A stretch of 64,000 nt of DNA from Phycisphaeraceae bacterium (GTDB lineage Bacteria; Planctomycetota; Phycisphaerae; Phycisphaerales; UBA1924): contig RECQ01000031.1 in assembly GCA_007693965.1 (NCBI GenBank), positions 17,771-81,770 of the forward strand, read 5' to 3'. Position 1 is the first letter of the stretch. Each line of letters starts with the position of its first letter. Shown one piece after another: positions 5,023 to 49,898 of this stretch. The position numbers were made by a program, and so were the translations under genes. A model generated the notes under the pieces. It made no database searches. It saw nothing but the letters and a program-made list of their open reading frames with translations, and was not told where the DNA came from.

Positions 5023-5880
5023 TCAGCCTTCGGAATCGGAGGCGGAGCCAGCGCCGGAAGCTGAATCGGGGCCGGCCTCGGGCGACGCTTCCTCCCCACC
5101 GCTCGCCACGCGGGCGATCGCCTTGTTCGCGATCTTCCCGATCACGATCACGATCACCACCGTCAGCCCGGCGCCGACGTAGAAGAACCAGCCCGGGCGC
5201 GTCTTGCCCGCCTCGGCCAGGTCTGCGATGCCCGAGGCGATGAAGACCGCCGCCCCCGTCCGCGGCGCCATGCCGATGAGCGTGCCCAGCAGGTACGGCG
5301 CCAGCGGCACGCGCGTCGAGCCCAGCGTCAGGTTCATCAGCGCGAAGGGCGAGTTCGGAGGCAGGCGCAGCAGCGTGACGATGCCGAGCGTCTTCCAGAA
5401 CCCGCCGCCGACCAGGGCGTCGCGCACCGCCTGCCACTTGAGCTGCTGGCCGATGGTCGCCATCACGTGGCGGCTGGCGACGCGGTGGGCCACGAAGTAG
5501 CCGATGAACGAACCGCCGAAGAAGCCCGCCAGAGCCGCGGGAAACCCGAGGGCGAAGCCGAAGGCCCAGCCGCCGAGGATCGCCTGGGCGTAGGTGGGCA
5601 GCAGGGCGAGGCCCGCGAGGACGGCGAAGCCGACGATATAGAGGGCGACGCCGGGCATGCCCAGCTCGCGCAGCCAGGGGCCGACCAGCCACAGCGTGGT
5701 CAGCAGCAGGATGCCGCTGATGGCGGGGAGCGTGCCCGCGAGCACCGCCAGCGGCCCGGCGGGCCCGAGCCGGCGCGCAATGAGGATGAAGCGCGAGCCG
5801 ATCGTCTCCTGCTTCGAGGCTTCGGAGTCGGGCTCAGGCTCGTTGATTGCGGGATCGATTTCGGGTGGTTTTTCGGTCAA
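5023..5880 (-). CDS. DedA/TVP38/TMEM64-family integral membrane protein
   Basis: Multi-TM protein with DedA-like glycine-rich TM segments (GGWAFGFALGFPAALAGFFGGSFIGYF..). The N-terminal 44 codons of the track ORF are low-complexity. Start placed at an in-frame TTG (LTEKPP); the true start is uncertain. Confidence 0.6.
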   Translation of the reverse strand: MTEKPPEIDPAINEPEPDSEASKQETIGSRFILIARRLGPAGPLAVLAGTLPAISGILLLTTLWLVGPWLRELGMPGVALYIVGFAVLAGLALLPTYAQAILGGWAFGFALGFPAALAGFFGGSFIGYFVAHRVASRHVMATIGQQLKWQAVRDALVGGGFWKTLGIVTLLRLPPNSPFALMNLTLGSTRVPLAPYLLGTLIGMAPRTGAAVFIASGIADLAEAGKTRPGWFFYVGAGLTVVIVIVIGKIANKAIARVASGGEEASPEAGPDSASGAGSASDSEG

Positions 5881-6048
5881 GTCCCGGAGCGTACCCGGCC
5901 CGGGCGACGGCCGCACACACCCGCGCGCCCGCGTTTCCCCGCCGGCTGCGACGCGGGTACACTCCGATTGTCGATCACGGTTGATCGTTCGAGATTTGCG
6001 AGATGCAGGCATGTGTGGGGCGAAAGCCTCTCACTGGAGGCCTTTCCG

Positions 6049-6990
6049 ATGATTCCGAAGCCCCCGCCCCGCGAGGGCCAGCTTGGTTTTGTGTTCGTGC
6101 CGCCCTTCCGTGTGCAGGGCGTCTCGATTGCAGGTGAGGCGACCTGCGTGCAGGTCCCGGAGCTGGATATCTGCTTTGACATGGGCTCGTGCCCGCGGGC
6201 GGCCCTGCCCAGCCGCATCGTGGCCATCAGCCACGGCCACATGGACCACGTCGGGGGCCTTGCCTACTTCTGCTCCCAGCGGAAGTTCCAGGGGATGGGG
6301 ACGGCGACGATCGTGTGCGACGAGCGGATCGCCGCGGGGGTGCGCCGGATGATGGCCGGCTTCGTGGAGCTGGAGGGGCAGGTGACGCCCTTCGAGCTGA
6401 TCCCGATGGGCCCGGAACAGGAAATCCAGATCAAAAATTCGATCGTGCTGCGCGCCTTCCACACCGAGCACACCACGCCCTCAAGCGGATATGTAGTGGT
6501 TGAGAAGCGGAGCAAGCTCAAGCCAGAGTATGTCGGCCTGCCGCAGGAGAAGCTGCGCGAGTTGAAAGAACGCGGCGAGGAGATCACGCACATCCTCGAT
6601 GTGCCACTGGTCGCGTATCTTGGAGACACAGCGCCGGGGCCGGTGCTGGTGCGTGAAGACGTGCGCAAGGCGCAGGTGGTGATCTGCGAGTGCACGTTCG
6701 TGGAAGAGGATCACAAGGACCGGGCCCGCATCGGCAAGCACCTGCATCTGGACGACATCGCCGAGTGGCTGCCGCTGCTGGAGAGTGAGGCGCTGGTGCT
6801 GACGCACGTGTCGCGGCGCAGCAATTTGACGCAGGCGCGGCGCCGATTGCACGAGCTAGTCAAGCCTGAAATTGCAGCGCGCGTGTCTTTCCTGATGGAT
6901 CATCGCACCAACCGCGATCGCTATGACAAGCAGGCCATGGCGGCGGAGGCGCGCGAAGCGCAGTTGAACGCCCGCGATGCGGGTGCATGA
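6049..6990 (+). CDS. rnz: Ribonuclease Z (tRNA 3'-processing endonuclease, short form), MBL fold
   Basis: HGHMDHVGG metallo-beta-lactamase motif, about 314 aa, C-terminal LTHVSRR. Start taken at ATG (MIPKPP); the upstream part of the track ORF overlaps the DedA gene on the opposite strand. Confidence 0.8.
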   Translation: MIPKPPPREGQLGFVFVPPFRVQGVSIAGEATCVQVPELDICFDMGSCPRAALPSRIVAISHGHMDHVGGLAYFCSQRKFQGMGTATIVCDERIAAGVRRMMAGFVELEGQVTPFELIPMGPEQEIQIKNSIVLRAFHTEHTTPSSGYVVVEKRSKLKPEYVGLPQEKLRELKERGEEITHILDVPLVAYLGDTAPGPVLVREDVRKAQVVICECTFVEEDHKDRARIGKHLHLDDIAEWLPLLESEALVLTHVSRRSNLTQARRRLHELVKPEIAARVSFLMDHRTNRDRYDKQAMAAEAREAQLNARDAGA

Positions 6991-7249
6991 TGAGGCGTTC
7001 GCAGGGGGCTCCGTGACACGCAAATGCGCAGATTTGCGAGTATGTGCGCACGAACGTGCGCCTACATGGTTGACAGACGTTGCGCGCATTCGTAGCTTCA
7101 TAGTTTGTCGCGGCACGCCCGGTGGGATGTCCGGCGCAGCGCAAGTTCGCAATGCGTCGGCATGAAAACGGTACGACAAGCGGGCGCCGTCGCGATGGTG
7201 TATTTGTTCCCCCTCTCTCACTCAACAACTTTCGCCAAGGCGGGCGATC
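6991..7249 (+). promoter_or_regulatory. dnaA upstream region with clustered TGCGCA/TGCGCG palindromic motifs and a candidate sigma70-like promoter (TTGACA-17nt-TAGCTT around 7068-7096).
   Basis: Six or more TGCGC-core motifs within about 150 bp (gcaaatgcgcagatttgcgag, tgtgcgcacgaacgtgcgcc, gttgcgcgcattc, gcgcaagttcgcaatgcg), directly upstream of dnaA. Confidence 0.3.
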
Positions 7250-8641
7250 ATGGATCGACCGGATCATCTGATCTGGAAAAAGCTGCTTGCGCATGTTCAG
7301 AAGCGCAGTCCGAACCTCTGGCGCCAGTGGTTCGAGGAGATCGAGCCCGTCGCGTTTGATGGGGGCGTCTTCCTGCTCCGCGTGCGCAACACCGTGCAGC
7401 ATCGGTACCTGCAGCGCGATTGCGCCCAGGCCTTCACCGATGCGGCGCAGGAGGCGACGGACAGGCTGGTCGCGGTGCGCTTCCTCGCCCCTGAAGCGGA
7501 GGTGCGCGAATTGGAGGATGACGCAGCGCAGGAGCACGGCAAGAATGGATCCGCCCAACTGATCGAGGCCCGGCCCCGCAACGCCACGCCTCGCATCGGT
7601 CTGCCCTCCGGCGGCGAGCTGATCCTCAACCCCGATTACAACTTCGAGAACTTCGTGATTGGGCCGGGCAACCGCTTCGCGCACGCCGCCGCACTCGCCG
7701 TGGCTGAGAACCCCGGCCTCACCTACAACCCGATGTTCATCTACGGCGGCGTGGGGCTGGGCAAGACCCACCTGCTGCAGGCGGTGTGCGCCCGCATCCT
7801 CGAACGCAATCCTGACACGCAGATCACCTACATCTCCTGCGAAGATTTCATCACCCAGTTCATGGACGCCGTGCAGGTGGGGCAGATGGCGGGCTTCCGT
7901 CACCACTTCCGCGATGTCGACCTGCTGGTGATCGACGACATCCACTTCCTCGCCAACCGCGATCGCACCCAGGAAGAGTTCTTCCACACCTTCAACAGCC
8001 TGCACCAGGCCCGCCGGCAGATCATCCTCTCCTCCGATGCAGCGCCGGATGAAATCCCCCACCTTGAGGGACGACTGGTCAGCCGCTTCAAGTGGGGGCT
8101 GGTCGCCGACATCCAGGCGCCCGACTACGAGACCCGCGTCGCCATCGTGAAGCAGAAGGCCAAGGTCCGCGGCGTCGAGCTGCCCAGCGAGGTGGCCGAA
8201 CTGATCGCCGAACGCTGCCACGCCAACATCCGCGAGCTCGAGGGCGCCCTCACCAAGATCCAGATGCAGGCCAACCTGGATGAGTCCCCCATCAGCATGG
8301 CCCTGGCCCGGACTGCCATGGGCGTCGAGACCAACATGCACGCCAACAAGGCCACCATCGAGGTGATCGTCAACGCCGTGACCGAGTACTACGACGTGAC
8401 GCTCTCCAACCTCCAGTCCAAGCGCCGCCAGCGCTCCATCGCCCAGCCGCGGCAGGTGTGCATGTACTTCGCGCGTCGGTTCACCCGCTACTCCCTCGAG
8501 GAGATCGGCGGCTACTTCGGAGGCCGGGACCACACGACCGTCCTCCACGCCGTCCGCACCGTGCAGTCCTACCTGGAGCAGGACCCCGAATTCGCCAGGC
8601 GAGTCGGCCAGATCGAGGCCACCATCCTCAGCAACGCCTGA
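7250..8641 (+). CDS. dnaA: Chromosomal replication initiator protein DnaA
   Basis: AAA+ Walker A GGVGLGKTHLL, sensor motifs, and C-terminal DNA-binding domain (RRQRSIAQPRQVCMYFARRFT..GGRDHTTVLHA). 463 aa. Confidence 0.95.
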   Translation: MDRPDHLIWKKLLAHVQKRSPNLWRQWFEEIEPVAFDGGVFLLRVRNTVQHRYLQRDCAQAFTDAAQEATDRLVAVRFLAPEAEVRELEDDAAQEHGKNGSAQLIEARPRNATPRIGLPSGGELILNPDYNFENFVIGPGNRFAHAAALAVAENPGLTYNPMFIYGGVGLGKTHLLQAVCARILERNPDTQITYISCEDFITQFMDAVQVGQMAGFRHHFRDVDLLVIDDIHFLANRDRTQEEFFHTFNSLHQARRQIILSSDAAPDEIPHLEGRLVSRFKWGLVADIQAPDYETRVAIVKQKAKVRGVELPSEVAELIAERCHANIRELEGALTKIQMQANLDESPISMALARTAMGVETNMHANKATIEVIVNAVTEYYDVTLSNLQSKRRQRSIAQPRQVCMYFARRFTRYSLEEIGGYFGGRDHTTVLHAVRTVQSYLEQDPEFARRVGQIEATILSNA

Positions 8642-8739
8642 GCCTGAGCCACGCCCCCCACTCCCGATCCACCACCACACCCCCACCACACCCCCACCAC
8701 ACGCTCCCGCTGCGCCCCGATTCTGCGTGTCGGCATGTA

Positions 8740-8748
8740 TGTGGATAA
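8740..8748 (-). promoter_or_regulatory. Consensus DnaA box (TTATCCACA on the minus strand)
   Basis: Exact 9/9 match tgtggataa; a weaker ggtggacag box follows at 8751..8759. Confidence 0.6.
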
Positions 8749-9091
8749 GCGGTGGACAGAACGGCGCGGCCGTCCGGGGCGGGTCTGCCGATTGGTGTGG
8801 GAAGTGTGTGAGTAATCCCGGGTGGACCCGGGGTCCGATCCGGCGCCATCGCGACGCGCCAACCGCCCGCCAGGTTCTCCACAGGCGCCGACGGGTGTAA
8901 ACCATTGTCAGTGCGACAATTGCGGCGAAAAAGCGAAGTACTTCACAGACCGACAGGCCTTACTACTGCGAAGATGAGAATCTCTTTCTCTCCCTGTAGA
9001 GAGAAGAAGCGGACGACTCTTGGGGTATTCTGCCGGTCTCTCTACGTTGGGCGCCCTAGATGGATCACCTGAAGCAGGGTTTTCCATCTTC

Positions 9092-9110
9092 TTCTCCACA
9101 ATGTGGATAA
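9092..9110. promoter_or_regulatory. Head-to-head DnaA-box pair: TTcTCCACA-a-TGTGGATAA
   Basis: cttctccacaatgtggataac pairs one 8/9 box with one perfect 9/9 box in inverted orientation, 1 nt apart. Confidence 0.6.
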
Positions 9111-9153
9111 CTTTCGCGGGCCTTCCCGGCGCTGGGGCGCCTTTACGGAACCT

Positions 9154-10011
9154 TCACTGTTGACAAGACTTGCACCACACCGTCGTCCGCTGGGCAATCG
9201 ACCCGGAGCGGAGCGCCCTGCCGCAGGACCGGCACGGCTCCCCGCCCCGGCCGTACACGGCGTGCTTGAGCTGGAACCAGCCTGACTCCCCCCGGCTGTC
9301 GACGTAGTCCCGCAGCGTCGAGCCGCCCGCTTCAATCGCGCGCCCGAGCGTGGCTCGGATCGCAGCGCACAGGGCCGCCACATCGCGCACATCGCACGCG
9401 AGGCGATCGGGAGCGATCCGGGCCAGGTGCAGCGCCTCGTCGGCGTAGATGTTCCCCAGGCCTGCCAGGACGGACTGGTCGAGCAGGGCCGCCTTGATGG
9501 GTCGGCGGGCACGCTCCAGCCGCGGCCCGAGCTGGTCCGGCGAGATCTCGGCGGCGTCGGGGCCGAGGAGCGACCAGCGCGTGTCGGTCAGCTCGGCGTA
9601 GCTTGCGAAGGTCCACACGCCCCCGAAGCGGCGCGGATCGCGGAAGAGCAGCCGCCCGTCTGACTGCGGGCGGTCGGCGCGGCCGTTGCTCCCGGAGGCT
9701 GCGGGCGTCGCCAGGCGCCATTCGAGGTGGATGTGGTCCGCCCGGGCCGGGGCGGCGCCGCGGGGAAGATGCAGGAGCTGTCCGGACATGCCGAGGTGGA
9801 CGCACAACGTCCGCCCGTCCGCCGCGACGATGGCGAGCTGCTTGCCGCGGCGTTCGAGACGGTCGACGACGGCGCCCCGGAGCAGATGCCGCCCGGTTCG
9901 TCCGCCCTCGATGATGTCGGTGCGGCGGCGGGTCACGGAGACCACGGCTCGCCCGGGCAGGACATCCAGGAGCGATCGGCGCACGGTTTCGACCTCTGGA
10001 AGCTCTGGCAC
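9154..10011 (-). CDS. mutM: Formamidopyrimidine-DNA glycosylase (Fpg/MutM)
   Basis: N-terminal MPELPEVE catalytic Pro2/Glu3 motif and C-terminal zinc finger CRSCGRAL...CKSCQ. 285 aa. Confidence 0.9.
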   Translation of the reverse strand: MPELPEVETVRRSLLDVLPGRAVVSVTRRRTDIIEGGRTGRHLLRGAVVDRLERRGKQLAIVAADGRTLCVHLGMSGQLLHLPRGAAPARADHIHLEWRLATPAASGSNGRADRPQSDGRLLFRDPRRFGGVWTFASYAELTDTRWSLLGPDAAEISPDQLGPRLERARRPIKAALLDQSVLAGLGNIYADEALHLARIAPDRLACDVRDVAALCAAIRATLGRAIEAGGSTLRDYVDSRGESGWFQLKHAVYGRGGEPCRSCGRALRSGSIAQRTTVWCKSCQQ

Positions 10012-10125: not shown

Positions 10126-11204
<1,079 letters not shown>

Positions 11205-12763: not shown

Positions 12764-15049
12764 GTGACGCTTCTCAACCTTGGTCTCGGGCTGGCGGGGG
12801 CGGCGTGCATCGCGATCCCGATCATCATTCACCTGCTCTTCCGGCGCAAGCGCAAGCCCGTCATGTGGGGCGCGATGCGCTTCCTGCTGGAGGCGTACCG
12901 GCGCCAGCGCCGACGCCTGACGCTGGAGCAGCTTCTTCTGCTGGCGACGCGATGCATGGTGATTCTGCTGCTGGCTCTGGCGCTTGGGCGTCCGGTGCTG
13001 GAGAGCGCAGGAGCGCTCGGCATGGGCGGATCGCGGCAGGTGTACATCGTCATTGACAACAGTCTTGCATCGAGCGCTCGCACCGAGGGCGGCGAGAGCG
13101 CTCTGGACCGGCACAAGCGTTCGGCGGCGGAGATCATCAGCGCGCTTGGTTCGTCGGACCGGGTGGGACTGATCACGCTGGGTTCGCCCGCGGCGGACCT
13201 GGTCGTGCCCGCTTCGAGCGATCACGGCGCGGTGCGATCGATGATTGAGGAGCTGGATCCGACCGATGCGGGCGCCGACACGCTGGGCGCATTCGAACGG
13301 CTGCGCAGCGAGCTGGAGCGCGAGGACACGCGCAGCGGGACCGTGCTGGTCGCGATGCTGAGCGATTTTCTGCTCGGCTCCGCGGACACGGCCTCTCCAC
13401 TGCCGCGGATTTTCGAGAACACCGACCATGTGCAGTTCCTGGCGAAGCGACCGGTGGAGTCGGGGCCGGGGAACGTGCAGGTCGTCTCGGTCGAGCCGTT
13501 GCGGCCGGTGGTCTTCACCGGCGCTGTGGGGCTGGACGGGCCGACATCGGAAGTGGTGCGCGTGCGTCTTCGCCGGACGGGTCCGATCGTGGCGGAGTCG
13601 GGCGTGACGACGGTGCGATTGCGCGTGGCGGCGGAGACGGAGTCGGGCGACTCGGCCTTCGGGCCCGGGGCGGCGCAGACCGTGGTGCGCTGGTCGCCGG
13701 GGCAGTCTGAGGCGACGGCGGCGGTGCAGGTGGATCTGAGCGCCGCGGGGCGCGCCATCGACTCCGGCGCCGCGGCGTTGATCGCGGAGATTGATCGTGA
13801 CGCGATCGACGGCGACAACGCATACCGGCGTCCGGTGGCGCTGCGGAACGTGCTTGACATCGGTGTGATTGCGCGTCGGCGCTTCGGCCCGGCGCCTCGG
13901 ATCGACCGGCTGGACGCGGCGGACTGGTTGCGCCTGGCGCTGCGTCCGACGGCGATTTCTCCCATCGAGGTGACGGACATCGAGCCGGCGTCGATCGATG
14001 CGCCCAGCCTGGCGCGCCTGGACGCGGCGATGCTCACGCGGCCGGACCTGGTTGACGATGATGGGTGGCTTCGTCTGCGCCGCTTCGTCGAGAATGGCGG
14101 GCTGCTGATGGTCTTCCCCCCCGCCGAGCCGAACGTGCATCTGTGGGGCGACGCGATGCAGGAGCATCTCGGCCTGTCGCTGCGCATCGCGCGGGAGGCG
14201 ACGGCGCACGAGCCGGCGCTGTCGTTGTCGGGCGAGGCGCCGGCGACGGACCTGCTGGCGCCGATTCGTGATGAGTTGTCGGATCTGGCGCCTCCGGTGG
14301 GCGTGTTTCGCACGCTTGCGATCGAGGAAGCGGGCGCCGGGATGGAGACGCTGCTGCTCCTCTCCGACGGATCGCCGTGGATCGTGGCGGGGTCGCCGAT
14401 GGTGGAGGACGAAACGGAAGCCGAAGCGCTGCGGGACGAGCGCGGCCTGGTGGTGTATTTCTCCTCAGCGCCGACGTTGTCGTGGACGGAGCTTCCGGCC
14501 AAGCCGCTGATGGTGCCGCTGACGCACGAGCTGACGCGCCAGGGCGTGGGCCGGGCGCATGGATCGTGGTCTTCGCGGGCGGGGGCCGCGGCGTCGGCGC
14601 CGGCGCGGACTGTTGAGCTTCGGGGTTTGGATGGTCGCGCGGGCGACGCGTCTCACGCGGTCGACGAGCGCGGGCGCACGACAGAGCCACTGCGCCGGGC
14701 CGGGCTGTTTCACGCGGTTGATGCGCGCCGGATGGGTCGCGGCTTCGTGGCGGTGAATGCGGACATCGAGGCGGGCCGGACTGATGCGCAGTCGCCGCAG
14801 GCCGTGCAGGGCTGGCTGGCGGCGAGCGGGCTGGGCACGCCGATGTGGATCGATGGCGATGGTCCTCGCGGCGCTGGAACGGAGATTGCGCTGGCCGGCG
14901 AGCAGGCGCGGTCGCCTGTGAGTCTGCCGCTGCTGATCGCAGCCCTGATCTTCGCAGTGATCGAGTTGATCATGGCCCGTTTCTTCAGTCATGCGTTCCG
15001 CGAGGAACGCGGCGTCGGGCGCAGGGGCGCGGCGGGAGGCGCCGCATGA
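12764..15049 (+). CDS. BatA-like aerotolerance-operon protein: N-terminal double-TM domain, vWA domain, C-terminal TM
   Basis: N-terminal LLNLGLGLAGAACIAIPIIIHLLFRRKRKP...LLLLATRCMVILLLALALGRP matches the BatA N-terminal domain. VYIVIDNSLASS vWA motif. GTG start. Confidence 0.7.
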   Translation: MTLLNLGLGLAGAACIAIPIIIHLLFRRKRKPVMWGAMRFLLEAYRRQRRRLTLEQLLLLATRCMVILLLALALGRPVLESAGALGMGGSRQVYIVIDNSLASSARTEGGESALDRHKRSAAEIISALGSSDRVGLITLGSPAADLVVPASSDHGAVRSMIEELDPTDAGADTLGAFERLRSELEREDTRSGTVLVAMLSDFLLGSADTASPLPRIFENTDHVQFLAKRPVESGPGNVQVVSVEPLRPVVFTGAVGLDGPTSEVVRVRLRRTGPIVAESGVTTVRLRVAAETESGDSAFGPGAAQTVVRWSPGQSEATAAVQVDLSAAGRAIDSGAAALIAEIDRDAIDGDNAYRRPVALRNVLDIGVIARRRFGPAPRIDRLDAADWLRLALRPTAISPIEVTDIEPASIDAPSLARLDAAMLTRPDLVDDDGWLRLRRFVENGGLLMVFPPAEPNVHLWGDAMQEHLGLSLRIAREATAHEPALSLSGEAPATDLLAPIRDELSDLAPPVGVFRTLAIEEAGAGMETLLLLSDGSPWIVAGSPMVEDETEAEALRDERGLVVYFSSAPTLSWTELPAKPLMVPLTHELTRQGVGRAHGSWSSRAGAAASAPARTVELRGLDGRAGDASHAVDERGRTTEPLRRAGLFHAVDARRMGRGFVAVNADIEAGRTDAQSPQAVQGWLAASGLGTPMWIDGDGPRGAGTEIALAGEQARSPVSLPLLIAALIFAVIELIMARFFSHAFREERGVGRRGAAGGAA

Positions 15050-17415
15050 ATGAAATGCTTTCCTGGCTGCTTGACCTGAATATGCTCGACCTGGGCGCGG
15101 AGAATGTGCGCTTCGGTTTCGAGCGGCCGCTGCCGTTATGGGGATGGTTCCTTGTGGTGCAGGCGGCGGTGGCGCTGGCGGCGTGGAGCTACTGGCGTCT
15201 GTCCGGATCGCGGTTCATGCGCGGGGCGCTGGCGGGTGTGCGCGCGGCGCTGCTGCTGCTCCTGGTGGCGCTGATCTGCGGGCCGCAACTGGTGCAGAGC
15301 GACGAGACGGTCGAGCGCGACTGGGTGGTCGCGCTGGTGGACCGCTCGCTCTCGATGACGATCGAGGATGTGGACATCGGGAACGGGCGGATTTCGCGCG
15401 AGGAGCAGTTGCGCCGGTCTTTGCAGCGCTCGTGGCCGACGTGGGAAAGCCTCGCTGAGCAGCGCCGCGTGGTGTGGCTCGGCTTTGACGCCGGCGCCTA
15501 CGACCTGCCCGTCGACATGGATGAACAGACCGGCGAAGGAATGACGCTGCGCCTGGACGAGCCGCAGGGACGGCGCACGAACATCGGGGCGGCGATGGAC
15601 CAGGCCCTGCGCCGGGCCGCGGCGCGGCCGCTGTCCGGCGTGGTGATCTTCTCCGACGGCAAGTCGCTGGATGAGCCCTCACGCGCGGCGATGCGCCGTC
15701 TGAGGGCAGAGCGCATTCCCGTGCACGTTGTGCCGCTGGGCAGTGAGATTCCCGTGGGCGACCTTGCGATTCGCAGGGCGGAGGGGCCCGGCATGGCGTT
15801 CGTCGACGACACGGCGCCGGTGACGGTCGAGATCGAGCGCGTCGGCGCCCCCGAGGGCCTCGGCGGCACGCTTCGGCTCCTGGACAAGGCGACGGGGCGC
15901 GTGCTGGATGAGCGTCCGATTGATCCTGACGAGGAAACGCAGACCATCACGCTCACGCACCGGCCCGAAGAGCCCGGCGATGCGACGTGGGTCGTTGAGA
16001 TTCTGCCCGACGGACCCGACCTGATCGCGGGCAACAACCGCGCCGAGGTGCCGATCGAGTTGATCGACCGGCCGCTGCGGATTCTGTACGTGGATGGGTA
16101 TCCGCGCTGGGAGCAGCGCTTCCTGCGCAATCTTTTCCTGCGCGAGGGGTCGATCCTGTCGAGCAACCTGCTTCTGGCGCCGAATCGCAGGCCGAGCCAG
16201 GAGGGCGACGTCGAGATCGACGCCCTGCCCGATTCGTCGGGCGCGTGGGGCCAGTACGACCTGGTCGTGATCGGCGACGCGAGTCCGGAGGTCTTTTCGC
16301 GAAAGCAGCTCGAAGATCTGCGCGAGCATGTGTCGGTGCGCGGCGGGGGTCTGCTGTGGATCGGCGGCGAAGGCTTGACGCCCGAGGCGTGGTGGGGAAC
16401 GCCGCTGGCGGATCTGCTTCCCTTTACACGCGACGGACTGCGCTCCGGCGGAGCGACCACGCCGTCGATCGTGCGCCCCACGGCGCTGGCGGAGCGCTTC
16501 GGCGTGATGCGCCTCAGTGATTCACCGGAAGAGCCGTGGCCCGCGGAGCTCTCCAGCCCCGACACGGGCTGGTCAATGCTGCGCTGGCGCCAGCCGATCG
16601 ATCCGGCCGGGCTCAAGCCGACGGCGGAGGTGTTGGCGCTGGCGACGCCGGCGCATGCCTGGGGCAGACCCGACAGCGCCGACGCGACGCCTCTGGTGAT
16701 GTCGATGCGCTACGGCGCCGGGCGCATCATCTACGTCGGAACCGATGAGATCTGGCGCTGGCGCTATGGTCGGGGCGAGGTGTACTTCGAACGCTTCTGG
16801 CTCCAGCTCGTGCGGCTGCTTGGGCGCGAGAGCCTGGCCCGGACCGGGCGCGACGCCGCCCTCACCATCGAGCCCCGCCGCGCTGTGGTCGAACCCACAG
16901 GCGCCGGCGTTCGCATCGCCATCGAGCTGTTGGACCAGTCGCTGGTCGAGATCGGGCTGAGCTCCATTATGGTGCGGCTGGAGCGCCGACGACTGCCCGG
17001 CGAAGCCGAGGACCCAGCCCCCGTCGAACTCACGCTCCGCCCCGAAGATCGCGCCGGGCGCCTCTTCTCCGGCACATGGATTCCCACAGAGCCCGGCGAG
17101 TGGCAGGTGAGGGCGGCGGAATCCGCTCTGGCTGGCTACGGGCTGGAAGAGCGGATCACCGTTTCGCTCCCGGACGACGAACTCCGAAGCCCAGAGACTG
17201 ATCATGCCCTTCTCGCCCGACTGGCAGAAGATTCTGGTGGCAAGGTGTTCGACCCGGGCGATCTCTCGCAACTGCCGGCGGAGCTGCCCAATCGGCGGGT
17301 GCGTCTGTTGAGCGAGACTGCGGAATCATTATGGGACACGCCACTGGCGTTGATCCTGGTGGTGATGCTGCTCACGATGGAATGGGTGGGCCGCAGGCTG
17401 GTGCGCCTGGTCTGA
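15046..17415 (+). CDS. BatB-like vWA-domain membrane protein (aerotolerance-cluster family), with a class-I glutamine-amidotransferase-like region
   Basis: Two N-terminal TM helices, VVALVDRSLSMTIEDV vWA motif, C-terminal TM. Start ATG overlaps the preceding stop (ATGA). Confidence 0.7.
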   Translation: MNEMLSWLLDLNMLDLGAENVRFGFERPLPLWGWFLVVQAAVALAAWSYWRLSGSRFMRGALAGVRAALLLLLVALICGPQLVQSDETVERDWVVALVDRSLSMTIEDVDIGNGRISREEQLRRSLQRSWPTWESLAEQRRVVWLGFDAGAYDLPVDMDEQTGEGMTLRLDEPQGRRTNIGAAMDQALRRAAARPLSGVVIFSDGKSLDEPSRAAMRRLRAERIPVHVVPLGSEIPVGDLAIRRAEGPGMAFVDDTAPVTVEIERVGAPEGLGGTLRLLDKATGRVLDERPIDPDEETQTITLTHRPEEPGDATWVVEILPDGPDLIAGNNRAEVPIELIDRPLRILYVDGYPRWEQRFLRNLFLREGSILSSNLLLAPNRRPSQEGDVEIDALPDSSGAWGQYDLVVIGDASPEVFSRKQLEDLREHVSVRGGGLLWIGGEGLTPEAWWGTPLADLLPFTRDGLRSGGATTPSIVRPTALAERFGVMRLSDSPEEPWPAELSSPDTGWSMLRWRQPIDPAGLKPTAEVLALATPAHAWGRPDSADATPLVMSMRYGAGRIIYVGTDEIWRWRYGRGEVYFERFWLQLVRLLGRESLARTGRDAALTIEPRRAVVEPTGAGVRIAIELLDQSLVEIGLSSIMVRLERRRLPGEAEDPAPVELTLRPEDRAGRLFSGTWIPTEPGEWQVRAAESALAGYGLEERITVSLPDDELRSPETDHALLARLAEDSGGKVFDPGDLSQLPAELPNRRVRLLSETAESLWDTPLALILVVMLLTMEWVGRRLVRLV

Positions 17416-17590
17416 GTGCCTCGGGCCTCCGGGGCGTGTGCGCGGCAGGTCTTCGGGGTGCATCGGCGGTGTCTCGGGCCGATATGGAATGGTGGAGAGG
17501 AACGGCGGCGCGGCGTCGGCGTCGAAAGTGAGTTGAGACGATCCAACCCGAGGGCGGGACGTACCAGTAAGAGAGGCCTCAGGACGCCGC

Positions 17591-20500
17591 ATGACCGACC
17601 AGTCACACCACAACAATCCGGATGGGGCCGTTTCCGGCGCCGGCATCGCGAAGGTGCGTACTTCGCTGACGCGTCTTGCGGCGAGGGCCCGGACGATTCT
17701 GCTGGCGCAGCGGCTGCTGCTCGGCGTGGCGGCGCTTCTGGCGGCGCTCATGTTCGTTGGGATGGTGGATTTTCTGTTCCGGTTCCCGATCGGGCTGCGG
17801 CTGTTTCAGTTGGCGGCGGGGCTGGCGATTCTGTCGTACGCCTTCTGGAAGTTCGTGCTGCCGGCGTGGCGTTTTCGCCCGTCGGCGACGGCGGTGGCGC
17901 TGCGTCTTGAAAAGCGGCATCCCGAGTGGGAGGGCTATCTGGCCAGCGGGCTGGAGTTCGCCTCCGGTGGCGATGCATCGCGCGAAACTGCAGACAGTCC
18001 GGAGATGGCGCGATACCTGTCGACGCGCGTGGTCGATGAGGCGGCGCGTCGGTGGAAGCCGGGAGATCTCGGGCGCGTGTATCGGCTGGAGGCGTTGCAG
18101 CGGGCGGGATTGCTGGCGGCGCTGGCGATTGTGGTCATCGCTGCTATCGGGTGGTTGAGCCCCAACCTGGCGATGATTTCGGCGGCGCGCACGCTGACGC
18201 CGTGGTCCGGCGCCGAATGGCCCAAGCGCACGATGGTGGTGGATGCGACGGATGTTGAGGTGCATCCGCTCGGCGCCGCGGCGCCGCTGCGGGCGGCGCT
18301 GGTGCGGTCGCATCGGACTGCGGATCGCACCGATGTCGCGGTTCGTTACCAGCTCATTCGCGATGGGCGCGTCGCGCAGTCGCGTCGGGCGTTGCTGACG
18401 TGGCAGGAGCGGGAGATTGATGTCGCTGGCGGCGGCAGCGGCGCGCTCTTCGAGCGGCTGGTGGATGCGGATGCGGACGTACTTGAGTATCGGTTCGAGA
18501 CCATCGACGACCAGACGCCCTGGCGACGCATCAAGCTGACGCCGGCGCCGGAGGTGAAGACGGCGCGGGTTCGCATCTCGCCGCCGGAGTATGCGTCGGC
18601 GCTGCGGGACGCGCAGGCGGAAGATGCTGAGGCGGGATTCGGCCCTCTGGAGCGCGACATGGGTCCGGGTCGTGATGAGCGGGCCGTGGCGCCGCGGTCC
18701 CTGGCGGGAAGCCGGGTGGAGCTGGACATCGAGTTGAACAAGCCGACGCCTCTGTCGCCGGACGATTCTTCCTGGGTCGTCGCGACGCTGGGTCCGGACG
18801 CCGCCACGGCGGGCGTCGACATCGAGGCGCTGGATGGCGAGGAGGGCGCCGCATCGCGGTGGCGCCTGCGCTGGACGCTGGATGACTCGGTGCGCCTGAC
18901 GGTGTCGCTGGTGGATGAATATGGAATTGTCTCGGTTGACGACTCGGTCTACCGCTTCGAAGCGGTGCAGGACCAGCCGCCCACGGTGACGGTGACGGCG
19001 CCGGATTCGGATCGCAGCGTGCTGGCGACGGCTGTGGTGGATGTTGAAGCTGAGGCGCGTGACGATGTGGCGCTGGACTCGGTATGGATCGAGCGGCAGC
19101 GGTCCCGTCCCGCCGGCGCGGCAGGCCGCGACCCCAGCGGACCGGGCGGCGCCATGGAGCCGATCGAGGATCCGGTGGAGATCGCACGTGTGGACGGCGC
19201 TTCGCAAACACTGGCCCGGGCGCGCACACAACTGGACCTGTCCACGCTCGGAGTGCGGCCGGGAGATGAGGTGCTGATCCAGGCGTTGGCGACGGACATC
19301 TACGCGACGGAGACGGTGCTGCGCGATCCCTCGAAGTCGATGGTGCGCCGGCTGCGCATCATCTCCGAGGCGGACCTGATCGAGGAAATTCGTTCTGAGC
19401 TCAACGCCGTGCGCCAGTCGGCGATCCGGTTGGATGAACAGCAGCAGCAGATTCGCGACAACATCCGGCGCGACGGCGCCGATGCACAGGCGCGACGGGG
19501 CCAGGCCCAGGTGAGCGAGCGCATCGCGCGGCAGCGCGATTCGGTGGACCGGCTGAGCCAGCGGGCCGAGACCAACGCGCTCGATGACGATCGACTGGAG
19601 AGTCTGCTCGACGAAGCGCGGCGCCTGCTGGATGAGGCGGGTCGGCGCTCGGAAGAGGCGGCCCGGATGATCGACGAAGCGGCTCGTGAGCAGGAGCATC
19701 GCGCCGGTGAGCCCGGCGCTGACGGGGCAGATGGCGAAGCCGGCGCCGCGGATGGCGATTCAGACGGGGTGGATGAATCTGAAGAGCGGTCGGAAGTCGA
19801 GCAGGCCGCGGACCGGGCCCAGCGCGATGTGCAGCGCGAGTTGGAAAGCCTGATCGAATTGCTGGACCGGGGTGAGGACGCGTGGGTGATGCGTCGGCAG
19901 CTCGAGAACATTCTTGAAGAGCAGCGCGAGCTGCGCGAGCAGACGGCGCAGGCGGGCGCTGAGACGGCGGGTCGCTCGGTCGGTGAACTGAATGAGCAGG
20001 AGCGCTCCGCGCTGGAGGACATCGTGCAGCGGCAGCAGGAGCTGGCCGAGCGGCAGCGCGAGTTGGCCGAGGAGCTGCGCGACCGGGCCGCCGAACTGCG
20101 CGAAGACGATCCTGCGGCGGCGGCGGGCTTGGCCGAGGCGGCGCGCCGGGCCGAGGAGAACCAGACCGATCAGACCATGCAGCAGGCGGCGGGCGAGGCG
20201 CAGGAGAACCGCATGTCCCAGGCGGGACAGTCGCAGGAGCAGGCCATCGAGGATCTGGAAGAGATGCTCGAAGGCCTCGACCGCGCCGAGCAGGCCCGCG
20301 AAGAGGCGCTGCGCCGCGTGCTGGCCAGCATCATCGAATCGATCGAAGCCCTCATCCGCAGGCAGGAAACGGAGTTGGAGACGCTCCAGGCCGCTGAGGA
20401 TCGCGGCGCGTTCGATGGTGTCGATGTGGGCATGATTCGACTCAATCAGAACACGCTGGGCGTGCAGGACACGGCGCGGGCGACGGACCGGGCCCTGGCG

Positions 20501-21292
20501 CCGGTCGCGAACATGTTGGGCCGGGCGGCGGACGAGCAGTCGGACGCGATCGTGGCCCTTCGCGCCGATCCCGTCGGCGTCGAAGCCGCACGGAACCGGG
20601 AGAACGCCAGCCTGGAGCGCCTTCGCGAAGCCAAGGCGCTCGCCGAGGAGCTGGAGCGCGAGCTGGCCCGTCAGCAGATGGATCGTGAGCGGCGCGAGCT
20701 GCGCCGGCTGTATCAGGAGATGCTCGAGAGGCAGACAGACGTGCGCGAAGAGACAGGGCCTTATGCGGAAGCGGACCGGCTCACCCGCCGCGACCAGGCG
20801 GCGTTGCGGGCGCTGGGCGAGCGGCAGGTTCAGATTCGCAAATCGCTCAGCGAGGCGCAGGAGCGCACGCAGGAGCTGCTGGAGGCGCGCGTCTTTGACT
20901 TTGCGCATCGCAGGCTGGATCGCCTGACCGGCGCCGCCGGAGAAGCGCTGCGGGCGGGCGAGCCGTCGCCGGCGTTGCCGGCGCAGCGCGAGTCGATCGC
21001 GCTGCTGCAGGGGCTGGTCGATGCGCTGCAGGAATCGGCGCAGCGCGAGAGCGAGTTTGACGACGGTGGTGGCGGCGGCGAGGGCGAGCCGGGCGAGGGC
21101 GAGCCGCAACTCATCCCGCCACTGGCCGAGCTGCGGCTGCTCAGGCAGATCCAGGCGGATGTCCTCCTCCGCACCCGCGAAATGGCCGAATCGCGCGATC
21201 GCGTGGGCGCTGAGGAAGTCGACGAACTGGGTTCGATGCAGCGCGAGCTGCACGAGATCGGTCAGGAGTTGATCAGGTCTATGATGCAGTAG
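17591..21292 (+). CDS. Large (1233-aa) membrane protein with N-terminal TM helices and a very long E/R/A/Q-rich coiled-coil region. Hypothetical; co-operonic with the Bat/MoxR cluster.
   Basis: Long ORF with strong periodicity and charged coiled-coil-like composition across 19300-21250. Shadow ORFs on the opposite strand were rejected. Confidence 0.65.
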   Translation: MTDQSHHNNPDGAVSGAGIAKVRTSLTRLAARARTILLAQRLLLGVAALLAALMFVGMVDFLFRFPIGLRLFQLAAGLAILSYAFWKFVLPAWRFRPSATAVALRLEKRHPEWEGYLASGLEFASGGDASRETADSPEMARYLSTRVVDEAARRWKPGDLGRVYRLEALQRAGLLAALAIVVIAAIGWLSPNLAMISAARTLTPWSGAEWPKRTMVVDATDVEVHPLGAAAPLRAALVRSHRTADRTDVAVRYQLIRDGRVAQSRRALLTWQEREIDVAGGGSGALFERLVDADADVLEYRFETIDDQTPWRRIKLTPAPEVKTARVRISPPEYASALRDAQAEDAEAGFGPLERDMGPGRDERAVAPRSLAGSRVELDIELNKPTPLSPDDSSWVVATLGPDAATAGVDIEALDGEEGAASRWRLRWTLDDSVRLTVSLVDEYGIVSVDDSVYRFEAVQDQPPTVTVTAPDSDRSVLATAVVDVEAEARDDVALDSVWIERQRSRPAGAAGRDPSGPGGAMEPIEDPVEIARVDGASQTLARARTQLDLSTLGVRPGDEVLIQALATDIYATETVLRDPSKSMVRRLRIISEADLIEEIRSELNAVRQSAIRLDEQQQQIRDNIRRDGADAQARRGQAQVSERIARQRDSVDRLSQRAETNALDDDRLESLLDEARRLLDEAGRRSEEAARMIDEAAREQEHRAGEPGADGADGEAGAADGDSDGVDESEERSEVEQAADRAQRDVQRELESLIELLDRGEDAWVMRRQLENILEEQRELREQTAQAGAETAGRSVGELNEQERSALEDIVQRQQELAERQRELAEELRDRAAELREDDPAAAAGLAEAARRAEENQTDQTMQQAAGEAQENRMSQAGQSQEQAIEDLEEMLEGLDRAEQAREEALRRVLASIIESIEALIRRQETELETLQAAEDRGAFDGVDVGMIRLNQNTLGVQDTARATDRALAPVANMLGRAADEQSDAIVALRADPVGVEAARNRENASLERLREAKALAEELERELARQQMDRERRELRRLYQEMLERQTDVREETGPYAEADRLTRRDQAALRALGERQVQIRKSLSEAQERTQELLEARVFDFAHRRLDRLTGAAGEALRAGEPSPALPAQRESIALLQGLVDALQESAQRESEFDDGGGGGEGEPGEGEPQLIPPLAELRLLRQIQADVLLRTREMAESRDRVGAEEVDELGSMQRELHEIGQELIRSMMQ

Positions 21293-21350
21293 CGACAGGG
21301 ACGGGTTGAATCACCCCCGTAACGGGATCTGACTCCCGGGAGGCGGACTC

Positions 21351-22166
21351 ATGAGATTCACAATGCACACGATGGATGGTGGACGCGCCGCGCTGCTTCG
21401 GCTGCTGGCGGGCGCCGCCTGCTTTGGCCTGGCCGCGGCGGGCGCGATCGCCGCGCCGGAGGACGCCCAGGACGACAAGCCGAAGGACGCTGAAAAGACG
21501 TCGGAGAAGGCGCCTGAGAAAGATTCGGAGAAGCAGTCCGAGACCTCCGAGCGGCCCCGGAGCCTGGATGACCTGCTGGGCATTCCTGAAGAGGACCGCC
21601 CGGAGCGCCGTCCTGATGATGATCCCGGTCCGGCCGACGACAGCGCACGTGATCTGCAGCAGCAGCGCCTCGAGCGGGCGTTGACGGGCTCCGAGATTTC
21701 CGAGCTCTTCGAGCAGGCGGTGTCGGAGATGAAGGACGTCGCCGACCGCCTGCAATTGGGCGGCGACCTCGGCATCACCACGCAGCGCATGCAGGAGGAC
21801 ATCGTCAAGAAGCTGGAGACGCTGATTGACCAGGCCGAGCAGCAGAGCAGTTCGAGCAGTTCATCGTCGCAGCAGCAGGCGAGTGATTCGAACGAGCAGC
21901 AGGATGTCGGCCAGCAGCCCCAGAGGGGTCAGCAGGACCAGCAGCAGTCGCAGCAGGCAAGCGGCGAGCCGGGTGAATCGCCTCCGGGCGGGCGCGAGGG
22001 CGCGTTGCCGGACGTGATGGATTCTGCGCGGGCCGCGTGGGGCTCATTGCCGGAGCGCGTGCGCGACACGCTGCTGCAGGGTTCGAGCGACCGATTCAGT
22101 TCGATCTATCGCAATATGACCGAGGAGTACTATCGCAAGCTGGCCGAGGAGGCGCCTGACCGATGA
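21351..22166 (+). CDS. Secreted acidic low-complexity protein (hypothetical)
   Basis: Signal-peptide-like N-terminus (LLRLLAGAACFGLAAAGAIAAP), D/E/Q/S-rich. Its stop overlaps the next gene's start (ATGA). Confidence 0.5.
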   Translation: MRFTMHTMDGGRAALLRLLAGAACFGLAAAGAIAAPEDAQDDKPKDAEKTSEKAPEKDSEKQSETSERPRSLDDLLGIPEEDRPERRPDDDPGPADDSARDLQQQRLERALTGSEISELFEQAVSEMKDVADRLQLGGDLGITTQRMQEDIVKKLETLIDQAEQQSSSSSSSSQQQASDSNEQQDVGQQPQRGQQDQQQSQQASGEPGESPPGGREGALPDVMDSARAAWGSLPERVRDTLLQGSSDRFSSIYRNMTEEYYRKLAEEAPDR

Positions 22167-26699: not shown

Positions 26700-28055
26700 A
26701 TGAGCCAGCGGATACGAATGCTTTGCGGCGCCGGGCTTTTCCTGCTGTGCGCGATGGTTTCGTACCTGGTGTCGCTGGCGGTGATGGCGGAGCCTGTCCC
26801 GGCGCCTGATGTCACAGAGAAAATGAATGAACTTCTGGCAGCCGCCCTTCCCGACGGCTCCGATGCGACGCCGCTGTTGATGGATTTCATGGAGCGCCGG
26901 AATGAGCTTCCATATTTCTGGGATACAGAGTCGGGCGAGAGAGAGTCGACGAACAGCCTTCTGCATCAGCTTCGGGTGCGCGACTGGAGCGATCCGGAAT
27001 TGTCGCTTGCCCACGAGGCCTGGAGTCAGATATCGCCACTGCTCTCTTTGCTTCATGAAGCGGCCGCGCACGACGTGGTGCGAGCGCCCTATGTCAGGAA
27101 CGGCGTCGACGGCTTCCCGGGAAACGAGACTGCGTTCGGTCGATTTCGGAGCCCGACCCGAGAGATTCTGCGCATCGCCATTCGAGACGCCGCCGAGCGT
27201 GAGGCGTGGGACGAAGTCGAACGAAACCTTGAAACCACACTGCGCCTCGCTCACCATCTGGGGCAACGACTCACCTTGGATGACCTTACGGCCGCAAGCA
27301 TGCTTGCCTACGGTGCGCTTCTGGAAATCATCCTCCAGTCTCAGGAGCGGCGCATCCCCCATGAAGTCTGCGAGCGGCTGATCGATGTCATCAACAGGGT
27401 GGATCCGCTTCCGGCGCCGATCGAGCGCGTCTGCGAAGTAGAACGACTTCGTACAAACGCGTATCTTTCACAACTGTTCAGCCGGAGCGGGATCATGATC
27501 GACTGGATGGAAGGGAATTTTACGTCAGAGTCATCACTCATTGAACGACTCGCGAACGTTCGCGCTCTGGCGGCGCACAGGCGCAGCCTGGCCGAGAACG
27601 CGGTGGATGAGCAATTTCACACTTTCTCGACCTGGTGGGAGGCACTTCCCGGAGAGCGGATCGCGCTTCAGGACAATCTGGTGTACCCAGACCGGATCGG
27701 AGACGGGAATTGGGAGCACATTGTGTGGTTTAACGAATCCAATTTCAGGCTTGCATTCCACACTCGAAACACACTTCCGGCGGGTGTGCGCACAGCGCTT
27801 CGTATCGCGCAGTTTCGAGACATGCATGGTCATTGGCCTGAGACTCTTGAAGAAGCCCTGTCGGGCGAGGAATTGCTCGAAACTCTCACAGGCGAGAAAT
27901 GGCAATACACGCGTTTACAAGAGAATCGGTATGGACAGCCGTATCGACTCGTGACGCCGCCCCAGCCGGGATATGTGTGGTACCCGATCCCCCTCTTTCG
28001 TGCGCAGGGTGCGAATGTGATCGATCTTTCAAGACCTCGTGGGGCGAGCAATTGA
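26700..28055 (+). CDS. Secreted hypothetical protein, paralog S1 of a tandem pair
   Basis: N-terminal signal/TM (LFLLCAMVSYLVSLAVMAEP) shared with 28168..29472. Also shares the conserved C-terminal block HGHWPETLEEA. Confidence 0.6.
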   Translation: MSQRIRMLCGAGLFLLCAMVSYLVSLAVMAEPVPAPDVTEKMNELLAAALPDGSDATPLLMDFMERRNELPYFWDTESGERESTNSLLHQLRVRDWSDPELSLAHEAWSQISPLLSLLHEAAAHDVVRAPYVRNGVDGFPGNETAFGRFRSPTREILRIAIRDAAEREAWDEVERNLETTLRLAHHLGQRLTLDDLTAASMLAYGALLEIILQSQERRIPHEVCERLIDVINRVDPLPAPIERVCEVERLRTNAYLSQLFSRSGIMIDWMEGNFTSESSLIERLANVRALAAHRRSLAENAVDEQFHTFSTWWEALPGERIALQDNLVYPDRIGDGNWEHIVWFNESNFRLAFHTRNTLPAGVRTALRIAQFRDMHGHWPETLEEALSGEELLETLTGEKWQYTRLQENRYGQPYRLVTPPQPGYVWYPIPLFRAQGANVIDLSRPRGASN

Positions 28056-49260: not shown

Positions 49261-49345
49261 GGGAGTTCCGAGTTCTGAGTACTGAGTACCGAGTTCTGAG
49301 TTCTGAGTTCTGAGTTCTGGGTCTGGGTCTTTGAATTCGTGGCGG
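49261..49345. repeat. GAGTTCT-type heptanucleotide tandem repeat tract (about 10 units) between rrf2 and sufB
   Basis: gagttcc gagttct gagtact gagtacc gagttct gagttct gagttct gagttct gggtct gggtct. Confidence 0.8.
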
Positions 49346-49376
49346 TGCGGTGCGGGATGTTGTTCATCCCGTTTTT

Positions 49377-49898
49377 TCATGGTCTCTCTGCGGCGATGTG
49401 TCTGTGCGGCTGCATTCGCAACTTGTGTTCGATCTGCCCGCCCCATGCGGGGACGACAGGCACTTCGCCGGTGGCGAGGTGTTCAACTGTCACGCCGCTG
49501 AGCATGCTCACCACGTTCATATGCACCTGGCGGATCGCGCCCTTGATGCGGCAGGAGTCTTCCAGCCGGCAGGGGACCGGCTCGGGGTCCTGGCCCTTGC
49601 GCGGGCGCGCGTGCGGCCCGCAGCACAGCGTCAGCCGCACCGGCCCCTCGATCGCCTCGACCACGCAGGTGATCGAGATCTCATCCGCCCGCCGGGCCAG
49701 CAGATACCCGCCCCCGGCGCCGTGGGCCGACTCCAAAAGCCCCGCCCGGGCCAGATCCTGCAGGATGTTCCGCAGCGCCGGCAAAGGCAGCCGCAGCGAT
49801 TCCGCCAGCGAACGGGCGCTGCGAGCCCGGCCGGGGTCCTCAGAGAGGGACACCAGCGCGACCAGGGCGTAGTCGGTCTTGCGAGTCAGAGAGAGCAT
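49377..49898 (-). CDS. Rrf2-family transcriptional regulator (IscR/SufR-like), first gene of the suf operon
   Basis: N-terminal MLSLTRKTDYALVALVSL...SLAESLRLPLPALRNILQDLARAGLLES is an Rrf2 wHTH. The C-terminal cysteines may ligate a cluster. Confidence 0.75.
   Translation of the reverse strand: MLSLTRKTDYALVALVSLSEDPGRARSARSLAESLRLPLPALRNILQDLARAGLLESAHGAGGGYLLARRADEISITCVVEAIEGPVRLTLCCGPHARPRKGQDPEPVPCRLEDSCRIKGAIRQVHMNVVSMLSGVTVEHLATGEVPVVPAWGGQIEHKLRMQPHRHIAAERP

Follow-up and report, generated by a model that had tools for sequence, protein, structure and literature searches.

A predicted DnaA-dependent replication origin between dnaA and a convergent mutM in a Phycisphaerales bacterium

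The 512-bp gap between dnaA and mutM of a Phycisphaerales bacterium is described here as a predicted chromosomal replication origin (oriC), whose closest described counterpart is the basal unwinding system (BUS) of Bacillus subtilis incC. The locus belongs to a stretch of 64,000 nucleotides, referred to as the window, from contig RECQ01000031.1 of Phycisphaeraceae bacterium (assembly GCA_007693965.1, positions 17,771 to 81,770 of the forward strand). The BUS of B. subtilis incC is reportedly also credited to work by Richardson from 2016. Its top strand consists of a pair of DnaA boxes, a short spacer and a series of triplets, TTATCCACA-AATCCACA-GGCC-CTA CTA TTA CTT CTA CTA (PMC8287927). Table S1 of Pelliciari 2021 prints BUS sequences as the bottom strand, 3' to 5', where the B. 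subtilis entry is AATAGGTGT-TTAGGTGT-CCGG-GATGATAATGAAGATGAT (PMC8287927). A distal box of the B. subtilis origin supports activity at 132-462 bp and in either orientation (PMC6669920).

In the phylum Planctomycetota, a BUS was predicted for two members of the class Planctomycetia. In Pirellula staleyi DSM 6068 (DoriC ORI93010622) the top strand reads CTATCGACA-(15 nt)-TTC CTA CTA CTA CTG (PMC8287927), and Rhodopirellula baltica SH1 also has a predicted BUS; both origins are predictions. Kuenenia, another member of the phylum, has three dnaA copies, of which the ori-defining one is located beside dnaN and gyrB (PMC7709395). Loss of the dnaA-oriC-dnaN arrangement is common, as illustrated by the gidA-mioC origin of E. 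coli, by the cyanobacterial origins beside dnaN and by that of Synechococcus lividus, which is far from both genes (PMC6323995). In GC-rich genomes, DoriC also notes, positions of the DnaA box tend to shift towards G/C (PMC6323995).

On the strength of its sequence, the gap between dnaA and mutM (Table 1) is probably an active chromosomal replication origin, and a probability of about 0.8 can be given to this reading. The initial annotation had proposed a candidate oriC at this place, and the proposal is supported by the statistics of the DnaA boxes, by the least stable DNA of the window, by a conserved core element, by the conservation of the locus in eight other genomes and by a modest switch in third-position GC skew. 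The origin is of the ordinary DnaA-box type, the exception being mutM in place of dnaN as the neighbour. Its unusual points are the motif CCGACAGG, the sequence GA(A/G)GATGA, purine/pyrimidine repeats and a clade-wide P423E substitution in DnaA, and nothing else.

The perfect DnaA box was taken to be TTATCCACA (reverse complement TGTGGATAA). Only two exact copies occur in 64 kb, both of them in the gap, where 0.01 would be expected, and none of 100 shuffled sequences contained two or more. The gap also holds four of the five boxes of the window with at most one mismatch. With up to two mismatches allowed it contains six boxes and is the densest 512-bp stretch of the window, which has 75 such boxes in total (about 0.6 per 512 bp). 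The DnaA boxes thus form a cluster well above chance, the density of which is not matched elsewhere in the window. The two exact boxes, the two identical one-mismatch boxes TTCTCCACA and the head-to-head arrangement at 9092-9110, with a single nucleotide between the boxes, were all correctly recognised in the initial annotation. The head-to-head pair is private to the window and only its minus-strand box has counterparts in relatives, a minus-strand box being found 110-160 nt to the right of the trios in L085, L167 and L168 (relatives are designated by locus numbers). The left box forms a tandem pair with a degenerate box, and pairs with the same 11-bp spacing are present in L167 (TGTGGATAAACTCTGGATAA), L170 and L011. 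Around the middle box, the block C(G/A)(C/A)CAGGTTCTCCAC is common to the window, L167, L172 and others. The tandem repeat CCACCACACCC had been described as three copies directly after the dnaA stop codon; the repeat exists, but it comprises 2.8 copies and starts 30 nt past the stop. It is genome-specific and probably not functional.

Between the distal boxes lies a core element that the first reading of the sequence overlooked, TACTTCACA-GACCGACA-GGCC-TTA CTA CTG (8939-8968). As in B. subtilis incC, the element is found just downstream of dnaA and points away from it. The likeness extends to the two abutting co-oriented boxes, to the GGCC spacer, to the 12-nt spacing, to triplets that have A as their middle base on the opposite strand and to the low-stability DNA next to the trios. 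The two elements differ in the quality of their boxes (three and four mismatches in the window versus none and two in B. subtilis), in the number of trios (three versus six to nine) and in what follows the trios, namely GA(A/G)GATGA and purine/pyrimidine inverted repeats in the window versus an AT-rich 27-mer in B. subtilis. The window, with 66.5% GC, also differs in having neither dnaN downstream nor a box cluster upstream of dnaA. The degenerate boxes of the window fit the drift of box positions towards G/C. With P. staleyi, a member of the same phylum, the core shares a CGACA-type box variant and CTA CTA CTG triplets; the P. staleyi prediction differs by a single box, a 15-nt spacer and five trios, in another class.

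The search rules for a BUS require that the better box has at most two mismatches and lies within 16 bp of the trios (Pelliciari 2021). For the other components, the second co-oriented box, for which up to four mismatches are allowed, has four (counted on the 9-mer AGACCGACA) and directly adjoins the first, like box#7 in B. subtilis. The spacer, of at most 16 bp with a mode of 12-13, is 12 nt long (GACCGACAGGCC), as in B. subtilis, and exactly three consecutive 3'-NAN-5' triplets, at least three being asked for, lie opposite 5'-TTATCCACA-3'. At the homologous position, a box with no more than two mismatches is present in L005 (one mismatch) and in L167, L168, L001 and L171 (two mismatches each). 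With the better box of the window over the limit (three mismatches) and the three other components within it, the core is described as probably working like a BUS and as positionally homologous to it, and by the published rule it is not a member. A mirrored second BUS, with the box TGTAGAGAG at 8995-9003 and top-strand NAN triplets at 8970-8981, was considered and rejected, being not conserved in relatives.

Of all blocks in the gap, the core element shows the strongest conservation, and TTACTAC is nearly invariant among relatives. The corresponding blocks are TCGTCCACA-ATCCGACA-CCCC-TTA CTA in L167, TTGTCCACG-ATGCGCCA-GCCC-TTA CTA in L168, AACTCCACA-ATCCGACA-GGCG-TTA CTG CTA in L084 and TTTTCAACA-AGCCGACA-CGCG-TTG CTG CTG in L001. 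An nhmmer profile built from four relatives, with the window left out, found one site in the 64 kb, at 8944-9004 on the plus strand (E=6.4e-9), the next match having E=0.7. When a five-sequence profile was run against 170 dnaA loci, all matches with E<1 were on the dnaA strand and about 100-710 nt downstream of dnaA. Some of these matches lie beyond Phycisphaerales and show the canonical tandem boxes and trios, for example in Clostridium L012 (TTATCCACAAATCCACAGCCCTTACTACTAC) and Bacillaceae L028. Two Phycisphaerales loci added later, L171 and L172, gave one match each (E=5e-8 and 1e-5), in both cases at the corresponding site.

The least stable DNA of the window begins directly at the trios. 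In a nearest-neighbour stability scan the segment 8959-9008 ranks first among 50-mers, and the region ranks third for 100-mers; the GC content over 8912-9031 is 43-53%, versus 66.5% for the window. An element of low stability is therefore located beside the boxes. An unwinding element had been placed at 8890-9060 on the basis of GC-poorer DNA; the low GC is real, but the predicted element is narrower, from 8960 to about 9008. The palindrome noted in this region is likewise present as an inverted repeat, although not as a full 28-nt palindrome, since the arms at 8986-8992 and 8999-9005 make a 7-bp stem around a loop of 6 nt. This hairpin is no better than those of shuffled sequences (z=-0.4), is absent from L084 and weak in L001, and no hairpin of the stretch is significant; repeats similar to it were found in six of the eight genomes folded, the window included. 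Purine tracts alternate with pyrimidine tracts in this region and give several short inverted repeats over 8970-9096. A motif similar to GA(A/G)GATGA also occurs in the canonical dnaA-dnaN locus L011.

A further motif, CCGACAG(G), is found at 8725-8732 and 8950-8957 and in the gaps of L084, L168, L171, L172 and L001. Across nine genomes, the dnaA-mutM gaps show an 11- to 14-fold enrichment of this motif, which always adjoins a TCCACA-type box in the same orientation. It may be a variant of the box or a site where another factor binds. As a stand-alone search key, CCGACAGG was rejected because it is too common in GC-rich DNA.

Table 1. Coordinates of the predicted origin, its sequence elements and the two bounding genes (positions in the window)
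Feature	Position	Strand	Remarks
dnaA	7250..8641	+	full-length initiator, 463 aa; Pfam Bac_DnaA and Bac_DnaA_C, NCBIfam TIGR00362
predicted oriC gap	8642..9153	no strand	non-coding, 512 bp, between convergent genes
tandem repeat CCACCACACCC	8672..8702	+	2.8 copies; Tandem Repeats Finder; no counterpart in relatives
CCGACAC (plus strand: GTGTCGGC)	8725..8732	-	CCGACAG-type clade motif, 6 nt from the left box pair; block CTGTCGGCAGC
left distal perfect box TTATCCACA	8740..8748	-	place kept in L084, L167, L170, L172, L001 and L011
degenerate box CTGTCCACC	8751..8759	-	3 mismatches; tandem with the 8740 box, 11-bp spacing
two-mismatch box TTACTCACA	8807..8815	-	box search
middle one-mismatch box TTCTCCACA	8875..8883	+	box search
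core box TACTTCACA	8939..8947	+	3 mismatches; counterpart of B. subtilis DnaA-box#6; alignments, layout of Pelliciari 2021 Table S1
second core box GACCGACA	8948..8955	+	counterpart of box#7 (AATCCACA); as 9-mer AGACCGACA, 4 mismatches
spacer GGCC	8956..8959	+	4 bp, GC; identical in B. subtilis
three DnaA-trio-like triplets	8960..8968	-	TTA CTA CTG on plus, 3'-AAT GAT GAC-5' on minus
predicted DNA-unwinding element	8959..9008	no strand	least stable 50-mer of the 64-kb window, -63.4 kcal/mol
purine-rich motif GAAGATGAGAATC	8970..8982	+	clade consensus GA(A/G)GATGA
pyrimidine/purine inverted repeat TTCTCTC-CCTGTA-GAGAGAA	8986..9005	no strand	folding
one-mismatch box TTCTCCACA	9092..9100	+	left half of the head-to-head pair
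right distal perfect box TTATCCACA	9102..9110	-	exact match
mutM (fpg)	9154..10011	-	convergent with dnaA; bounds the gap where dnaN would be; Pfam, NCBIfam

The arrangement of dnaA, a gap of 330-590 bp and a convergent mutM is shared by eight other genomes (L084, L085, L167, L168, L171, L172, L001 and L005), whose DnaA proteins are 52-64% identical to that of the window. These relatives were gathered from protein matches and contig look-ups; a scan of metagenomes with DnaA gave almost no close relatives. The conserved order includes an MBL-fold gene upstream of dnaA and, usually after mutM, MoxR, DUF58 and BatA genes. In the gaps of the eight relatives, boxes with at most one mismatch are 78-fold enriched, 11 of 15 boxes lying in 3.4% of the DNA (p=9e-14). 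An unsupervised k-mer count in the gaps returned TCCACA as the top 6-mer (p=8.5e-19), with CCGACAG/CGACAGG (p about 1e-7) and then AAGAGA/TCTCTT (p=3.6e-8) behind it. The conserved blocks are the left tandem pair with its 11-bp spacing, a middle block CGACAGGTTCTCCAC, the core element and the right minus-strand box; in gaps of such different lengths, conservation is limited to blocks of the box type. The loci L081 and L169, whose DnaA is 62-63% identical, have neither the mutM neighbour nor the core element, and the arrangement is consequently not universal in the order.

The absence of dnaN is the main departure from the canonical context. None of the called open reading frames (ORFs) of the window has a DnaN, RecF or GyrB domain according to Pfam, and tblastn with five DnaN queries found nothing in the 64 kb; the same queries find DnaN in other Planctomycetota loci with E values of 1e-38 to 1e-40. 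The earlier statement that dnaN, recF and gyrB are not adjacent can thus be extended to the whole window. The context had been called non-canonical, which is true of the replacement of dnaN by mutM and not otherwise, the gap occupying the ancestral origin position downstream of dnaA with its core oriented as in Firmicutes. The canonical order of dnaA, gap and dnaN is kept in L010 and L011, from other Planctomycetota. The latter, the metagenome-assembled genome (MAG) OFTM205, shares with the window the left tandem pair (TGTGGATAACCTGTGGACAA) with 11-bp spacing and, downstream of dnaA, a perfect box with TCTTCTCTC...GAAGATGAAGATG purine/pyrimidine repeats after it. L010 and L011 differ from the window clade in having dnaN after the gap, where the clade has the convergent mutM. 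In the Phycisphaerales MAG SJ401 (L001), a dnaN-like gene (1359-2543) shares the strand of dnaA and lies about 3.5 kb upstream of it, with mutM still following the gap; this layout may represent an intermediate stage of dnaN relocation. Absence from the window, retention in L010 and L011 and displacement in L001 together suggest that the origin stayed with dnaA while dnaN moved. In comparison with E. coli, the cyanobacteria and S. lividus, the predicted origin of the window is still with dnaA and only dnaN is gone.

The cumulative GC skew of the window has its minimum at 11,097, 2 kb from the gap, and its maximum at 49,616. The plus-strand skew at third codon positions (GC3 skew) is for the most part negative before about 5 kb; between 11.6 and 49.4 kb it is positive, and from there on it is negative again, regardless of the strand of the genes. 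When the GC3 skew of nine genomes was modelled with a coding-strand term and a side-of-gap term, the latter was positive, i.e. in the direction of an origin, in eight of them (mean r=0.112, p=0.006); with dnaA and mutM left out the term was 0.118 (p=0.014). Boundaries placed at 9.2-11.4 kb give the strongest switch in the window. This change of GC3 polarity gives modest support to the origin.

The initiator encoded next to the gap is intact. The DnaA of the window scores 492 bits against the TIGR00362 cut-off of 344, i.e. at equivalog level. Its homologues place the window in Phycisphaerales, and the closest of them share just 62-64% identity with it. Residues 8-456 align with B. subtilis DnaA 8BTG, the closest solved structure. 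Domain IV can be aligned to E. coli 1J1V with no gap and keeps R398/R399, D433-H434-T435 and H439, the RR, DHT and H residues that we take to contact the bases of the box. The roles of these base-contacting residues are reportedly described in work by Fujikawa from 2003. At the position of E. coli Pro423, a DNA-contacting position of domain IV, the window DnaA has a glutamate (residues 399-404, SLEEIG, encoded at 8444-8461). Among the 120 closest homologues, xSLEEI is found in 109 and proline in none. The clade-wide P423E substitution may be linked to the third position of the box, which varies (TTnTCCACA), or else to the variant CCGACA.

By analogy with B. subtilis, the following sequence of events can be proposed. 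DnaA would first occupy the strong boxes, i.e. the perfect ones at 8740 and 9102 and the one-mismatch ones at 8875 and 9092. These boxes (8740, 8875 and 9092-9110) sit 55-190 bp from the core, and the perfect ones, at 130-190 bp, are within the working range of 132-462 bp of the B. subtilis distal box (PMC6669920). Through cooperativity or looping, they would load DnaA-ATP onto the weak boxes at 8939-8955. From there a DnaA oligomer would extend along the minus-strand triplets 3'-AAT GAT GAC-5' at 8960-8968, the layout of which is seen in the sequence, and would stretch and open the segment of lowest stability, 8959-9008. The opening at about 8959-9008 would depend on TTACTACTG and on the orientation of the boxes at 8939-8955, and the replicative helicase would then be loaded. 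That opening proceeds through the box-trio core is somewhat favoured.

Several observations weigh against the proposed origin and its core. The better core box exceeds the two mismatches tolerated by the published BUS rule, both core boxes are poor, and the trios number only three here, as in L084 and L001, and just two in L167 and L168. Applied to the window, the published rule returns no match in the gap and seven in coding DNA; a relaxed rule returns six matches in 64 kb, with 8939 among them. The BUS rule alone is not discriminating, so the case rests on the profile together with synteny and conservation. As for the skew, the left arm of the window is flat instead of falling, and L171 has no GC3 switch at the gap. 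The raw GC skew of the flanks (3-10 kb, 19 loci) has no consistent sign, rising over the whole locus in L171 and falling in L172; it is uninformative, which is why the model corrected for coding strand was used. The nine-genome test is itself not fully independent, as neighbouring genes are shared. A second switch at about 49.6 kb indicates that switches without an origin occur in this genome, and, the analysis spanning 64 kb, a second dnaA elsewhere in the genome is possible. The second switch (49,300-49,700), only 40 kb away from the predicted origin, has the Rrf2-suf operon on one side and a gene for an aldehyde dehydrogenase on the other, and may be an inversion breakpoint or an acquired segment.

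In a rival reading, the box cluster is a regulatory or titration site for DnaA, or an inactive relic of the ancestral origin, the active origin being elsewhere, for example beside dnaN or a second dnaA. The lack of dnaN in the whole window, the degeneracy of the core, L171, the skew switch unrelated to the dnaA locus (at least one in this genome) and the example of Kuenenia, with its multiple dnaA copies and an ori-defining copy beside dnaN and gyrB (PMC7709395), are all in keeping with this explanation. A relic, however, would not keep its position and sequence among genomes whose DnaA proteins have diverged to 52-64% identity, and the GC3 skew runs in the direction of an origin in eight of nine genomes. 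The dnaA of the window is moreover full length and above the equivalog threshold. Titration and reactivation loci of the datA and DARS type are box clusters away from the origin that have no unwinding element. The cluster described here borders on a trio-type core and on the window's least stable DNA, and a titration site would not be expected to keep a box-spacer-trio core in such a place. An origin elsewhere is therefore regarded as improbable. That the gap is a small gene, a non-coding RNA or a termination region, with boxes occurring by chance, is very hard to maintain. Convergent genes do need terminators and several ORFs of 60-97 residues overlap the gap, yet two exact boxes stand against an expectation of 0.01. 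Rfam gave no match to the gap, even at E<=1, a scan for sites resembling promoters or terminators was negative, and a dedicated search found no tRNA. The proteins of its ORFs are not conserved, since tblastn gave significant matches to the MutM C-terminus and its shadow frame and to nothing else, and the length of the gap varies from 330 to 590 bp with only box-type blocks conserved.

Other alternatives accept the origin and concern the way in which it is opened. The strong boxes, including the head-to-head pair at 9092-9110, could bend or strain the DNA so that melting occurs in the repeats at 8970-9100, possibly with a clade factor acting on CCGACAGG. The best boxes are indeed distal to the core, the least stable 30-mer of the gap lies at 9085, beside the head-to-head pair, the CCGACAG and AAGAGA motifs are enriched in the gaps, purine/pyrimidine inverted repeats cover 8970-9096 and the conserved GA(A/G)GATGA breaks the polarity rule of the trios. 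Since the head-to-head pair is not kept in relatives, the hairpins are not significant relative to shuffled sequences and the core, the most conserved block, aligns with experimentally defined Firmicute elements, this route of opening is considered unlikely. Slightly more doubtful is the proposal of an opening module specific to the Phycisphaerales clade, in which the trio array has shrunk to two or three and is functionally supplemented by GA(A/G)GATGA, the inverted repeats and CCGACAGG. The GAT-like triplets of GA(A/G)GATGA run against the 3'-GAT-5' polarity rule, and CCGACAGG, always beside a TCCACA box, could be read by the P423E DnaA or by another origin-binding factor. Taken as a whole, the best explanation is that of a predicted DnaA-dependent oriC at the ancestral dnaA-linked position of a Phycisphaerales bacterium, which is held to be likely.

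Regarding the genes around the gap, the coordinates of the 512-bp non-coding stretch between dnaA and mutM were confirmed in the sequence. The identification of mutM as the downstream neighbour also holds, since the protein passes two equivalog cut-offs (NF002211, 245 bits versus a cut-off of 212). The upstream ORF (5467-6990) had been annotated as rnz; it does encode an MBL-fold protein, but its similarity to RNase Z is weak (77 bits versus a cut-off of 293). Relatives of this protein also match the Anti-Pycsar Apyc1 family. The listed start at 5467 makes the ORF overlap a minus-strand VTT-domain gene (5023-6012), and the relatives being 312-330 residues long, the real start is probably near 6040. 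The spacer between this gene and dnaA (7010-7110) contains no DnaA box with one mismatch or less. It has short GC-rich palindromes (GCAAATGCGCAGATTTGC, GTGCGCAC and TTGCGCGCA) that may be promoter or regulator sites of dnaA. At the other end of dnaA, 2.5 copies of GCCTGA span the stop codon (8636-8650), a small duplication that takes in the stop. Further downstream, the MoxR-DUF58-BatA genes are followed at 14845-21292 by two large ORFs (856 and 1233 residues) with no Pfam match, and L172 has ORFs of comparable size after these genes as well (17392-21542). The segment 26,000-28,200 has a lower GC content (about 0.60) and was skipped by the GC3-based gene call; it contains an ORF of 451 residues at 26700-28055 on the plus strand.

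No description of a Phycisphaerae origin was found in the literature searched, and most of the organisms concerned are uncultured. A confident origin call provides an anchor for the orientation of assemblies and supports estimates of growth rate from metagenomic coverage (peak-to-trough ratio). Replicating vectors could also be developed from it, in a phylum for which genetic tools are few. Finally, the locus is a further example, GC-rich and strongly degenerate, for the proposal of an ancestral box-trio core in bacteria, a core that here would have remained attached to dnaA after dnaN left.

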